A DNA stretch of 64,000 bases from NCBI RefSeq assembly GCF_013122565.1, contig NZ_CP053258.1. One strand, 5' to 3'. Source of the stretch: Escherichia coli (GTDB lineage: Bacteria > Pseudomonadota > Gammaproteobacteria > Enterobacterales > Enterobacteriaceae). Positions 3,118 to 10,104 of this stretch are shown here, piece after piece. The notes under the pieces were generated by a model. The model had not been told where the DNA came from. It searched no databases and saw nothing but the letters and a program-made list of their open reading frames with translations. Position 1 is the first letter of the stretch, and each line of letters begins with the position of its first letter. The position numbers were made by a program, and so were the translations under genes.

Positions 3118-5640
3118 ATGAATAAATCCGTTGTGTCAATTTCTGCGGCAATATTGGTTTTACTCTGCCAGCCGGTTATGGGGAAAGAAATCTCACCCGC
3201 TACACCGTCAGATGAAGATAACTACACCTTTGACCCGCAACTCTTTCGCGGCAGCAGATTTAGTCAGTCGTCATTGGCAAAACTGACAACTCGTGAGTCT
3301 GTTGCACCGGGTAATTATAAAATGGATATCTACACCAATAATAAGTTGTCAGGCAGTTGGAATGTCACGTTCAAAGAAGCCGCTGATGGTCGCGTTCTGC
3401 CCTGCCTGACGCCTGAAGTCGCGGACGCGATAGGCCTCAAAACAGGGGAAGATAAGGGTGAAAAAGATCCGGTCTGTACCTTTGCTCAGGAACTCGCTCC
3501 CGGCATCACCAGCCAGACACAGTTGTCACAACTACGCCTTGACTTGTCGGTGCCTCAGAGTCAAATGATTAGTCGCCCTCGCGGCTATGTCCCCCCCAGC
3601 GAGCTGGATACCGGAGCATCGCTGGCGTTCATGAATTATATTGCCAACTATTACAACGTTGCCTATTCAGGGCAGAATGCTCATAGCCAGCGTTCGCTAT
3701 GGGCATCATTTAATGGTGGCATCAACCTTGGTGCCTGGCAATATCGTCAGTTATCCAACATGACCTGGGATAATGACAAAGGGAATCAGTGGAACAATAT
3801 TCGTAGCTATTTGCAACGCCCGCTGCCCGCCATAAATAGCCAGTTAATGATGGGGCAGCTTATCACCAGCGGAAGATTTTTCTCTGGACTCAGTTATCAC
3901 GGCGTTAGTCTCGCGACCGATGAACGTATGCTGCCGGACTCCATGCGCGGCTATGCGCCGACTATTCGCGGCGTGGCCGCAACAAACGCCAGAGTCTCGG
4001 TAATGCAAAACGGTCATGAAATATATCAGACCACCGTGGCTCCTGGCCCTTTCGAGATAAACGACCTATACCCCACCAGCTACAGCGGCGATCTGGATGT
4101 CACCGTTACGGAAGCTAACGGCGCAGTCAGTCGTTTCAGTGTCCCCTTTTCAGCCGTACCAGAATCGATGCGTCCAGGAACTTCCCGTTATAACGTGGAA
4201 GTAGGTAAAACGCAGGATAGTGGTGATGACTCGATGTTTGGTGACCTTACCTGGCAGCACGGGATGACTAATACGCTGACATTTAACAGTGGTTCGCGTA
4301 TCGCTGATGGCTACCAGGCGCTGATGCTGGGCGGAGTCTATGGCAGTTCGCTGGGGGCATTTGGGGCAAACCTCACTTGGTCCCATGCGCGTGTTCCCGA
4401 AAGCGAAGCGCAGAGTGGTTGGATGTCGCAATTAACCTGGAGTAAAACTTTCCAGCCTACTTCAACCACCGTCTCCCTGGCAGGTTATCGATACTCTACC
4501 AGCGGCTATCGTGATCTGGCTGATGTGCTGGGAGAGCGTCATGCTGCCAGCAATAAACAGTCATGGGACTCCAGCCAGTGGCGTCAACAGTCGCGCTTCG
4601 ATCTTACGTTAAGTCAGAGCCTTGCGAATTACGGCAACCTGTTTGTGTCAGGTTCAACACAGAACTACCGTGGCGGCAAAAGCCGTGATACACAGCTTCA
4701 GTTAGGTTACAGCAATAGCTTTAGCCATGGCATCAGTATGAACCTTTCCGTCGGACGCCAAAGAATGGGCGGCTATAAAGACAATTCTGATGATATGCAG
4801 ACGGTAACATCCCTTTCATTCTCATTCCCACTTGGCGGCAATGGACCTCGTGTACCAAGTCTTAGCAACAGCTGGACCCATTCAACTGACGGTAGCTCGC
4901 AATTACAAAGCTCGCTAACCGGAATGCTTGATGAAGCACAGACCACCAACTACAGCCTGAACGTCATGCGCGATCAACAATATAAGCAGACGACGCTTAG
5001 CGGAAACATGCAAAAACGTTTTTCACAAACTACCGTCGGATTGAACGCATCGAAGGGCCAGGATTACTGGCAGGCTTCAGGTAACGTACAAGGCGCGATG
5101 GCTGTGCATGGTGGCGGCATTACTTTCGGACCTTATCTGGGTGAAACGTTCGCCCTGGTCGAAGCTAAAGGCGCAGAAGGTGCAAAAGTCTATAACTCCA
5201 GTCAGCTGGAAATTAATGACAGTGGCTATGCGCTTGTTCCGGCAGTAACGCCCTATCGATACAACCGTATATCTCTCGATCCACAAGGAATGGATGGCGA
5301 TGCCGAGTTGGTCGACAGTGAAAGACAGGTAGCACCGGTTGCAGGTGCGGCGGTGAAAGTAATTTTCCGTACCCGTCCTGGTAAAGCGTTGCTGATTAAA
5401 TCCCGCATGGCAGATGGTTCGGAACTGCCAATGGGAGCCGATGTGCTGGATGAGAATAATACAGTCGTCGGTATAGCCGGTCAGGGGGGGCAAATTTACC
5501 TCCGCACAGAACAGACAAAAGGCCACTTGTCAGTTCGCTGGGGTGAAGGTGCTAACGATAGCTGCCAATTGCCCTTTGATATCAGCGGGAAGGACAGCAA
5601 TAGCCCTATCATCCGCCTGAATGAAACCTGTCAGTCTTGA
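3118..5640 (+). CDS. Outer-membrane fimbrial usher (FimD/PapC family)
   Basis: 840 aa with a signal peptide, of typical usher size, placed between a chaperone gene and an adhesin gene. Gln/Ser/Asn-rich beta-barrel composition. Confidence 0.9.
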   Translation: MNKSVVSISAAILVLLCQPVMGKEISPATPSDEDNYTFDPQLFRGSRFSQSSLAKLTTRESVAPGNYKMDIYTNNKLSGSWNVTFKEAADGRVLPCLTPEVADAIGLKTGEDKGEKDPVCTFAQELAPGITSQTQLSQLRLDLSVPQSQMISRPRGYVPPSELDTGASLAFMNYIANYYNVAYSGQNAHSQRSLWASFNGGINLGAWQYRQLSNMTWDNDKGNQWNNIRSYLQRPLPAINSQLMMGQLITSGRFFSGLSYHGVSLATDERMLPDSMRGYAPTIRGVAATNARVSVMQNGHEIYQTTVAPGPFEINDLYPTSYSGDLDVTVTEANGAVSRFSVPFSAVPESMRPGTSRYNVEVGKTQDSGDDSMFGDLTWQHGMTNTLTFNSGSRIADGYQALMLGGVYGSSLGAFGANLTWSHARVPESEAQSGWMSQLTWSKTFQPTSTTVSLAGYRYSTSGYRDLADVLGERHAASNKQSWDSSQWRQQSRFDLTLSQSLANYGNLFVSGSTQNYRGGKSRDTQLQLGYSNSFSHGISMNLSVGRQRMGGYKDNSDDMQTVTSLSFSFPLGGNGPRVPSLSNSWTHSTDGSSQLQSSLTGMLDEAQTTNYSLNVMRDQQYKQTTLSGNMQKRFSQTTVGLNASKGQDYWQASGNVQGAMAVHGGGITFGPYLGETFALVEAKGAEGAKVYNSSQLEINDSGYALVPAVTPYRYNRISLDPQGMDGDAELVDSERQVAPVAGAAVKVIFRTRPGKALLIKSRMADGSELPMGADVLDENNTVVGIAGQGGQIYLRTEQTKGHLSVRWGEGANDSCQLPFDISGKDSNSPIIRLNETCQS

Positions 5641-7821: not shown

Positions 7822-8613
7822 TTAACGAATTGAATATCCACCATCAATGACTAATAGTTGTCCATTGACATAATCTGAAGCGGCACTGGCGAGGAACACC
7901 ATTGCGCCCATAAGATCCTGTGCCCTTCCCCAGCGTTGAGCCGGTATACGCCCTTTTATTAACTCTTTTATTTTAGGGTTATTATAAATAATAGCGGTCA
8001 TTTCACTCACATAATATCCTGGGGCGATACCATTAATCTGAATATTATATTCCGCAAAATCATCGGCATACGCTTTGGTCAGCCCCGCTAAAGCATGTTT
8101 AGTCGCCGCATACCCTGGCGACCAACGTCCCCCATGAAATGACAATACGGAACACATATTAATAATTTTCCCTTTTCTTTGCGGGACAAATATATTCAAT
8201 GCGGCCTGGCTCATATCGAATGCAGCATTCAGGTTGAGATTAATCATCGGATCCCAGTCGTTTCGATTGAAATCGATAGGACGATTAAAGTTACACACGC
8301 CCGCGTTATTGACCAGAATATCTAACTGACCGAAACGCTCCAGACACCTATTAATAATGGTGCATGCTGCATCAGGTTTTGTTATGTCTATTGTCATAAA
8401 CTCAACTTCAACGCCTTCATGAGTTAAATGCTTTAAATATCTATTATCAGGCTCTTTGATGTCTACCAACAATAGATTAGCCCCTGCTTTGGCCAGAGCC
8501 GAGCATAAGCCTCTCCCCAGCTCACCCGCGGCCCCAGTTACGATGGCCACCTTGTTATGTAATGAAAAAAAATCCAATGAAAAATCTTCAATAGAAAAGC
8601 TCATATCACACAT
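7822..8613 (-). CDS. Short-chain dehydrogenase/reductase, KduD-like (2-dehydro-3-deoxy-D-gluconate 5-dehydrogenase paralog)
   Basis: 263 aa. Rossmann motif VAIVTGAAGELG, NNAG motif, catalytic Y-x3-K (SPGYAATKHA), and a C-terminus ASDYVNGQLLVIDGGYSIR closely resembling KduD. Start may be the Met three codons downstream. Confidence 0.8.
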   Translation of the reverse strand: MCDMSFSIEDFSLDFFSLHNKVAIVTGAAGELGRGLCSALAKAGANLLLVDIKEPDNRYLKHLTHEGVEVEFMTIDITKPDAACTIINRCLERFGQLDILVNNAGVCNFNRPIDFNRNDWDPMINLNLNAAFDMSQAALNIFVPQRKGKIINMCSVLSFHGGRWSPGYAATKHALAGLTKAYADDFAEYNIQINGIAPGYYVSEMTAIIYNNPKIKELIKGRIPAQRWGRAQDLMGAMVFLASAASDYVNGQLLVIDGGYSIR

Positions 8614-9291
8614 TGCTCCTTATGAGTAAGTAATATTTAAGGGATAATTTAAGTAATTTTTAGATTTCAATAAAAAAATATAAACATTAAAACTCAGCAT
8701 GAATAATAAACATCAAATCTTATATACATTTAAGTAGTGATGTATCACGTAAAAATATAGTCATCATAGATGTTATGCAGTACGCACAAAAAAACAGACT
8801 GGATTTGCTTGCTGATCTATAATCTTTATCTAAATTACTATTGGCGCTTTGGATAATAACATAAGCATATATTACCTCCTAGCAATAATAGACATAACCT
8901 CATATCAAGGTGTCACTGGTAAATAATCGGATAAAGGACAGTACCGGTCGGCACATAGAGCTTCTTCTATTTCACCAGAAGTGCACAGCAGGGAACTACC
9001 AATCACACGGTTAGTGTCATGGGTGGAGGATGCGTCCCGTTCTTTCCCAATAACGGGGATACGCAGTTTTTATCAGTACATGCAGAAAAACCCCTAATTC
9101 ACATCACTGCAGAAAGCATTTAATAGAAATATACATCGTTTAAGAATTTCAATTAAATCAAGATTATTCTTAAAAATCAGATAATTCACATTTGCATTTT
9201 TAGGAAATTATACTATAGTGCAATTAATGTTCTTGCCTTTATTTTGTAAGTAATACTGGATTTGTAATACACAACTAAGGTATAAAATGTA

Positions 9292-10104
9292 ATGATCTAC
9301 ATTATAAATGATGAAGTAAGATTCAACTCATCATCTAATAAGTTAACATCACTCCTTACATCAGAGGAAGTGATACTCACTTATCCTGCGGGAAAATGCT
9401 TAAAATTACTTTTAGATAACGCTTATAGTGTCGTATCGCACAATCAATTCTTTGAAAAAGTCTGGAGCGATAGCAGCGCTGAAGTCGCAACCAATACTTT
9501 ATATCAAAACATTTCGATGATAAGACGCTCCTTTCGTGAAATCAGCTCATCGACGATATTTAATGATATTATCAGAACGGTGCCGCGTAAGGGTTTTAAA
9601 ATCAATGAAGAAATCAACATAACTGTTCTCGACAATAATCATACTGAGAATGAAAGTGTTGAGAGTGAAGAGGATGGTACCCACATTGAAAATATAAATA
9701 AAAATCATGTTGCAAAAGATATTTTCACCACAAAGAATACATTACTTATAGTGTACTTTTTTGCGGCATGGGGGATAGTGTATATATCTTCTTATTTTTT
9801 CGATATGGCTTTTCAAAGCAAAGCTCACACTATAAAAAAAACAGATGCTTTCTCAAATTATGCTCAACATCCTACTCAGGAAGGGTGTAGCTATTTCTAT
9901 GACAATATATATTTTAATTCCGTAGACATGTTATCACCGATTATTGAAAAATTGCAGAAAATGGAAATTAACTGCAAAATACATCCTTACATTTACATTG
10001 CAACAAATGATAGCATGAGCGGGTTTTATGCTTTCACCTGTAGTCAGATGTTAAACTCTGAATCACCAAATAATTGTAATTCTCTCTATTATAAAGCGGA
10101 GTAA
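9292..10104 (+). CDS. Membrane-anchored ToxR/CadC/MarT-like transcriptional regulator (N-terminal OmpR-type winged helix, one TM segment, Cys-containing periplasmic domain); resembles E. coli YqeI
   Basis: 270 aa. Winged-helix signature ...FFEKVWSDSSAEVATNTLYQNISMIRRSF...IIRTVPRKGFKI. Acidic linker followed by a hydrophobic segment NTLLIVYFFAAWGIVYISSYFF. About 100-aa C-terminal domain with four or more Cys. A GG-containing RBS-like motif lies upstream of the ATG. Confidence 0.7.
   Translation: MIYIINDEVRFNSSSNKLTSLLTSEEVILTYPAGKCLKLLLDNAYSVVSHNQFFEKVWSDSSAEVATNTLYQNISMIRRSFREISSSTIFNDIIRTVPRKGFKINEEINITVLDNNHTENESVESEEDGTHIENINKNHVAKDIFTTKNTLLIVYFFAAWGIVYISSYFFDMAFQSKAHTIKKTDAFSNYAQHPTQEGCSYFYDNIYFNSVDMLSPIIEKLQKMEINCKIHPYIYIATNDSMSGFYAFTCSQMLNSESPNNCNSLYYKAE

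Follow-up and report, generated by a model that had tools for sequence, protein, structure and literature searches.

A GC-richer patch upstream of grvA in Escherichia coli O-island 47 is probably an unconstrained non-coding spacer

The DNA analysed here (the window) is a 64-kb stretch of E. coli DNA, in which an intergenic region of 687 bp separates an SDR-family oxidoreductase gene from grvA, the two genes being divergently oriented within the E. coli island OI-47. The product of the SDR gene matches the Pfam families adh_short (E 3e-50) and adh_short_C2 (E 2.9e-52). It is already established that the regulator on the other side is GrvA (Z1531) of O-island 47, a member of the ToxR family (PMC8565820, PMC10877973), and that its promoter is bound by RcsB (PMC8565820). 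The region shares 99.0% identity with E. coli O157:H7, in which the same genes adjoin dgcT and pgaA. Among 5426 complete E. coli genomes, the intergenic region was found in 401, with one copy in each, and a GC-richer patch that it contains was found in 400, always at this locus, at one place per genome and never annotated. In one E. coli genome (NZ_OZ197100.1; L020 5342-5894), a filler of 553 bp made up of (CA)n, (AT)n and poly-C replaces the DNA from the middle of the patch to the end of grvA, an apparent loss of half the patch that is almost certainly an assembly artefact and no natural deletion. Elsewhere in OI-47, the fimbrial usher gene (3118-5640) is intact both in EDL933 and in the window, as an ORF of 840 codons, and it is annotated as frameshifted in O157:H7 strain TR01 (L001 504-3021). 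The features of the locus are collected in Table 1.

Table 1. Features between and including the SDR gene and grvA, in window coordinates; variability is the share of columns variable across 12 E. coli sequences.
Feature	Position	Strand	Variable columns	Basis or remark
SDR-family oxidoreductase gene, KduD-like, left neighbour	7822-8604 (ORF extendable to 8613)	-		ORF list; Pfam; RefSeq annotation of the O157 orthologue
SDR-proximal region, very AT-rich (10-40% GC), poorly conserved	8605-8846		23-33%	No gene-associated TSS in published Cappable-seq data
Mini-ORF of 12 codons, MLMLLSKAPIVI followed by a stop	8866-8828	-		Opened by the ATG of block i
Conserved block i, SDR-side border of the patch	8847-8891		2%	0/45 columns polymorphic in the major lineage, 1/45 overall (12 E. 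coli sequences, including strain 33E)
GC-richer patch, fast-evolving non-coding spacer (probable)	8892-9092		36%	GC 0.47-0.52; no homologue, RNA family, fold or periodicity
Stop-free frame without ATG, 54 sense codons and a stop	8905-9069 (codons 8908-9069, stop 8905-8907)	-		Translation
Conserved block ii, grvA-side border of the patch	9093-9122		6%	0 polymorphic columns in the major lineage, 2/31 overall
TAATTCACAT, distal copy, in block ii	9095-9104			Motif search
RcsB-box-like palindrome CAAGATTATTCTTA, within the conserved control region of grvA, some 20 bp before the -35 hexamer	9159-9172			Consensus match
grvA promoter and leader	9160-9291		4.5%
TAATTCACAT, proximal copy, overlapping the -35 of the grvA promoter	9182-9191	+		Motif search
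grvA sigma-70 promoter (TTTGCA, 17 nt, TATAGT) and TSS	9191-9226 (hexamers 9191-9219; TSS 9226)	+		Promoter scan; Cappable-seq
grvA (Z1531), ToxR-family winged-helix regulator, right neighbour	9292-10104	+		Pfam Trans_reg_C; same locus as in O157:H7 EDL933

When GC content was measured in 100-nt windows, it reached 0.45-0.51 over 8900-9100, compared with 0.20-0.33 on both sides. Taken as segments, 8905-9092 has a GC content of 0.468 and the core at 8941-9060, which had been singled out by the sequence-only reading, of 0.517, while the left (8614-8904) and right (9093-9291) flanks stand at 0.265 and 0.246, respectively. The maximum for any 150-nt window was 0.50, versus 0.382 ± 0.019 in shuffles of the intergenic region, and, since none of 5000 shuffles reached 0.50, the contrast is far beyond what chance would produce. 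The earlier description of a GC-richer patch inside an AT-rich intergenic region is therefore confirmed, except that its length, given as about 120 bp, is in fact about 190-200 bp. The GC content of the patch also exceeds the GC3 of both the SDR gene (0.40) and grvA (0.33), as well as that of its unconserved neighbour at 8701-8846. Because the latter is itself unconserved and has much lower GC, either a different origin of the GC-richer patch or a purely compositional constraint on the flanks is needed to account for the difference. Additionally, polarised polymorphisms in the main E. coli lineage comprise 8 GC>AT against 1 AT>GC changes in the patch, compared with 3 against 11 in the AT-rich flank (Fisher p = 0.003), showing that the GC contrast is eroding in E. 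coli. This erosion argues against active maintenance in this species and fits a slowly decaying relic.

A roughly 50-codon reverse-strand open frame devoid of an ATG had been taken as a possible sign of the 3′ end of a deleted gene. The frame exists, and its only available start is an internal GTG, giving 33 aa. However, the longest stop-free run over the six frames amounts to 56 codons, a length reached by 52% of patch shuffles; the reverse-strand frame is thus of chance length and provides no evidence of coding. It is interrupted by 1-bp indels in strains 33E and Res13. No 3-nt periodicity was detected in the patch (base-by-phase chi2 3.3, p 0.77), with 98.9% of equal-length coding segments from the window scoring higher, and residual codon periodicity was absent in four patch alleles. 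In the same way, the substitutions separating the two E. coli alleles are spread evenly over the codon phases (16/18/14), and the indels between them are of 1 bp.

Homology searches were equally negative. The reverse-frame peptide had no candidate in an index of 5.8 billion proteins, and phmmer searches with the six frames of the window and 33E alleles against 1.84 billion representatives returned, as the sole match, a 30-aa ORF call from the same locus. No Pfam match was obtained with the six frames of the E. coli and Pseudocitrobacter patches. By blastn, the E. coli patch had no second copy in E. coli genomes, was present in 2 plasmid records, both of them the same E. coli locus, and was found in 0 phages; the Pseudocitrobacter patches gave only chance matches of 27-30 nt against plasmids and E. 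coli. No match with E < 0.01 was obtained by tblastn when the patch frames were compared with the remainder of the window, with the complete OI-47 of O157 and with L005, L006, L007, L010 and L011. A dispersed repeat (REP/BIME, ERIC, MITE or IS end) is at odds with the occurrence at one place per genome in all 400 genomes, and the AT-rich flanks carry only short inverted matches at chance level. The patch was also considered as the 3′ terminus of the ycdU-like gene located before the SDR gene in L005, an idea that was rejected, as neither the C-terminus nor the DNA matches. Any former gene here has left no recognisable trace. Hence, the proposal of a gene 3′ remnant found no support in homologous protein or DNA, in codon periodicity, in the distribution of substitutions over codon phases, in the 1-bp indels or in the length of the frame; the earlier view that the patch is non-coding and compositionally distinct was right.

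The possibility of a structured RNA, which had also been put forward, was assessed from its family membership, its folding and its transcription. No Rfam covariance model matched the patch, even with an E-value limit of 10, none matched the Pseudocitrobacter loci at the gathering score, and ARAGORN reported no tRNA or tmRNA over 8500-9400, hence no tRNA-like gene or fragment. Folding z-scores against shuffles were -1.41 (+ strand) and -0.69 (- strand) for the E. coli patch and +1.76 and +0.55 for the Pseudocitrobacter counterpart (L011), that is, folding no better than that of shuffles. The RNAalifold covariation terms (-0.68 and -0.16 kcal/mol) were negligible, and all apparently compensatory pairs trace to a single allele and to a purine/pyrimidine stretch whose alignment is poor. 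These results leave the structured RNA without support. The promoter scan found no sigma-70-like promoter reading into the patch, its matches being restricted to 9185-9219. Within the patch, two terminator-like hairpins occur, at 8954-8941 (- strand) and 9021-9037 (+ strand), where 0.1 would be expected; both are weak, their stems being 5 bp long and their T runs interrupted. Weak hairpins are also present at 9036-9057.

Published Cappable-seq data of EDL933 from eight conditions contain a sole gene-associated TSS for grvA, at 1426796 in CP008957.1 (PMC10469882, supplementary file 6). In the same eight conditions, no gene-associated TSS appears in the 250 bp preceding the SDR start, and the SDR gene has only one internal TSS, in one condition (PMC10469882). 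Through the EDL933 annotation, the grvA TSS is placed at window position 9226, which corresponds to a grvA leader of 66 nt and lies 7 nt past the -10 hexamer TATAGT, exactly as the promoter predicts. The patch (CP008957.1 1426930-1427130) is located 134-334 bp upstream of this TSS and therefore outside the grvA mRNA and its 5′ leader. Of the three outcomes that the earlier note would have taken as a refutation, two were obtained, namely no coding homology and no RNA family, while the third, the lack of a transcript, was covered in part, through the gene-associated TSSs.

Sequence variation within E. coli divides the intergenic region sharply. Two deep alleles exist, represented by 394 and 7 genomes and sharing 83% identity, the minor one being that of strain 33E (L002). 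No other stretch of the intergenic region is as poorly conserved as the patch, which differs between the window and 33E at 64 of 203 columns, 1-bp indels included. The corresponding synonymous p-distances are 0.19 for the SDR gene and 0.08 for grvA. The patch thus tolerates change at least as readily as synonymous sites do, in contrast to the strongly constrained sequences on either side of it (Table 1). Both E. coli alleles share an identical 18-nt run, GGGAACTACCAATCACAC (8991-9008). As a separate observation, the central intergenic region (8604-9160) differs from 33E with a p of 0.31-0.33, above the synonymous divergence of both flanking genes, which suggests that this intergenic DNA may have had a different history or that synonymous sites may be under constraint.

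On its minus strand, block i reads AGGAGGTAATATATG, comprising a perfect Shine-Dalgarno sequence (AGGAGG) and an ATG. The mini-ORF opened by this ATG extends to 27 codons in 33E, and its conservation is limited to the first 7 codons. Block i aligns weakly (E 0.039) to a conserved block of Pseudocitrobacter, from which AGGAGG is absent. On the grvA side, TAATTCACAT occurs only twice in the 64-kb window, where 0.2 occurrences are expected, the two copies lying 87 bp apart. A tandem of a related repeat, TTCAGATAATTC-N6-TTCAGATAATTC, is found upstream of the grvA homologues of Pseudocitrobacter (L011, ~4888-4916) and of L010 (~4890-4925). The TAATTCACAT and TTCAGATAATTC repeats are a candidate operator, possibly for GrvA autoregulation. 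Scanning metagenome contigs with the double-operator pattern returned 120 unrelated tandem-repeat loci, 0 of them with a GrvA homologue. Between the two TAATTCACAT copies, CAAGATTATTCTTA matches the RcsAB-box consensus at 11 of 14 positions on both strands, a match that alone is not statistically significant.

The same arrangement is found in another genus. In Pseudocitrobacter (L007, L011-L013), GrvA is 51% and the SDR protein about 82% identical to the E. coli proteins, the genes are divergent in the same way, and the intergenic region measures about 800 bp. At the same position, this region holds a GC-richer patch of 230-234 bp with 45-50% GC and peaks of 60-65%, which is bordered on one side by a conserved block with weak alignment to block i and on the other by a conserved promoter region of the grvA type. 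The two patches themselves are unalignable (z < 1), and direct alignments of the E. coli, Pseudocitrobacter and L010 patches gave z between -1.2 and +1.9 against shuffles. Between the two Pseudocitrobacter alleles, 51% of the patch sites differ and the indels measure 1, 2 and 4 nt, whereas the flanking blocks differ at 16-21% of sites and synonymous sites at about 60%; between E. coli and Pseudocitrobacter, synonymous divergence has reached saturation (pS 0.79). Such comparisons have little power, as each genus contributes two deep alleles. The layout recurs in three additional lineages of the SDR (63-82% identity), from short metagenome contigs (L142 1-360, L143 160-500 and L145 140-280), where the SDR gene is preceded by about 300 bp of AT-rich sequence and, beyond it, by GC-richer (up to 68%), stop-riddled DNA without a called gene, and none of these three GC-richer stretches could be aligned to another. 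A scan of genome contigs with GrvA recovered one E. coli-like contig inside a MAG and nothing else.

Other loci show the two modules apart. In L005 and L006 (JGI genome; 4869-6783), an SDR orthologue of 80% identity directly follows ycdU and an acyltransferase/LolA-like/FtsX cluster. In O157 TR01 (L009; 6138-6920 and 34419-35405), the ycdU cluster is 28 kb from the SDR gene, at the other end of OI-47, so that OI-47 appears from gene order to have been rearranged between lineages, looking circularly permuted. In L010, the neighbours of a grvA homologue are another fimbrial operon and a scrap of a transposon; the AT-rich DNA begins about 240 bp upstream of its ATG, with background GC beyond, and this background-GC DNA contains a 162-codon ORF that, as read from the sequence, is a putative transposase fragment. 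Because the modules are arranged differently in L005/L006 and in L010, the SDR-grvA junction represents a module boundary. As for the suggestion that the patch marks an old insertion or deletion boundary of the island, the part that holds is the junction between modules found apart elsewhere, which makes a rearrangement boundary plausible, by indirect evidence.

The explanation that best accommodates these observations is that the patch is probably about 200 bp of unconstrained spacer, rather than a gene, a recognisable piece of one or a structured RNA. Its place is between two AT-rich control regions, namely an SDR upstream region of about 290 bp that ends in block i, and a grvA control region of about 200 bp that comprises block ii, the RcsB-box-like site, the promoter and the TSS at 9226. 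The AT richness of the flanks is that expected of promoters, leaders and silenced foreign DNA, while the middle, presumably free of any sequence-specific job, has roughly the E. coli background GC. The patch would then stand out because its neighbours are so AT-rich and it is itself at background GC. Such a spacer would have no function beyond, at most, holding the two control regions apart, and we infer that it dates from the joining of the SDR/fimbrial and grvA modules, before the E. coli and Pseudocitrobacter versions of the locus diverged. What speaks against this reading is that some 200-235 bp keep their position, length and raised GC across two genera whose synonymous sites are saturated, and this persistence, despite the usual deletion bias of bacteria, hints at a constraint on spacing or composition.

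When compared with known systems, the patch resembles the divergent-promoter spacers of AT-rich acquired islands, of which the published grvA promoter region of O-island 47 is an example, in being non-coding, in evolving at about the neutral rate, in lying upstream of a mapped, reportedly RcsB-dependent sigma-70 promoter and in being flanked by conserved cis-regulatory blocks. Such spacers are usually as AT-rich as their surroundings, whereas the patch is about 20 percentage points GC-richer, a contrast that recurs at the same position in another genus. With the pseudogene relics left by island rearrangements it shares its place at a variable module junction, its deviant composition and its frameshifting indels. 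However, these relics normally align to an intact homologue, while for the patch none was found among 1.84 billion proteins or in 5426 E. coli genomes, and codon periodicity is lacking. It is also intergenic in an O157:H7 O-island, as are EHEC O-island sRNAs such as Esr41 of OI-43. The latter is a discrete transcript of about 70 nt ending in a GC-rich terminator hairpin and poly(U) (PMC8565820), in contrast to the patch, which has weak terminator-like hairpins only and lacks a convincing promoter-terminator pair, a stable fold and sequence conservation.

Among the alternatives, an ancient scrap, that is, the eroded tail of a gene or other GC-richer DNA caught between the modules when they were joined and since decayed beyond recognition, is unlikely; it overlaps with the inert spacer as regards function and differs from it in origin alone. 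It would explain why the GC of the patch is above that of the equally unconstrained 8701-8846 and above the GC3 of the SDR gene and grvA, and the present loss of GC, at 8 GC>AT to 1 AT>GC, is that of a relic out of equilibrium. The junction being a module boundary with respect to L005, L006 and L010, and L010 carrying background-GC DNA with a putative transposase fragment just upstream of an AT-rich grvA control region, point in the same direction. These arguments are countered by the lack of a homologue in any frame of the E. coli or Pseudocitrobacter patches, by the absence of codon periodicity in four alleles and of any frame above chance length, and by the consideration that neutral decay since the genus split should have left little of an original GC excess.

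Another alternative is a DNA role independent of the sequence, with the patch serving as a spacer or insulator between AT-rich control regions that are probably bound by H-NS, as we assume, or as a set of binding sites with fast turnover. It is favoured by the fact that, despite complete sequence turnover, the patch persists in the same place with raised GC and a length of 201-203 bp in E. coli and of 230-234 bp in Pseudocitrobacter, by the invariant blocks that bracket it exactly and by the 18 nt of GGGAACTACCAATCACAC shared by both E. coli alleles. Nevertheless, an identical run of 18 nt is expected by chance at this divergence and region length, and the GC contrast is eroding rather than held in E. 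coli, so that such a role is considered improbable. Little credence is likewise given to a maintained background-GC spacer of about 200-235 bp insulating silenced SDR and grvA control regions, or to a fast-evolving orphan transcript, either of which, if true, would explain the persistence in E. coli and Pseudocitrobacter despite the turnover of sequence. Still harder to sustain is that the patch is transcribed and acts as RNA, be it a small RNA, a long leader of the SDR mRNA or the product of a distal grvA promoter. O-islands are rich in sRNAs (PMC8565820), a strong ribosome-binding site and an ATG are available in block i, immediately downstream of the patch in the sense orientation of the SDR gene, and weak hairpins are present at 9036-9057. 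On the other hand, no Rfam family, folding (z -1.4, -0.7, +1.8 and +0.55) or covariation (-0.68 and -0.16 kcal/mol) signal was obtained, no sigma-70-like promoter leads into the patch, the terminator-like hairpins are only two and weak, and divergence proceeds at a neutral rate with indels. Furthermore, the gene-associated TSSs listed in the eight conditions are that at 9226 for grvA and none for the SDR start, and a review of the field reports no sRNA of OI-47 (PMC8565820). This reading is therefore regarded as very improbable.

With the patch read as an unconstrained spacer, a candidate pseudogene or sRNA is removed from OI-47. What is left over is a GC-richer spacer, free of conserved sequence, that persists at the same place in two genera. 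The map upstream of grvA becomes cleaner, comprising the TSS at 9226, the promoter, the RcsB-box-like site, the repeated TAATTCACAT and the two invariant blocks, and it is of interest because GrvA controls the LEE and acid resistance in EHEC. For experiments, the invariant blocks and the repeated motifs are better targets than the patch. A minor observation was made at the downstream end of this map, where a minimal start-stop ORF, ATG TAA, lies at 9287-9294 and overlaps the grvA start codon by one base (ATGTAATG); it occurs in E. coli and is absent in Pseudocitrobacter, and the spacing of the AAGG ribosome-binding site suits it better than grvA.
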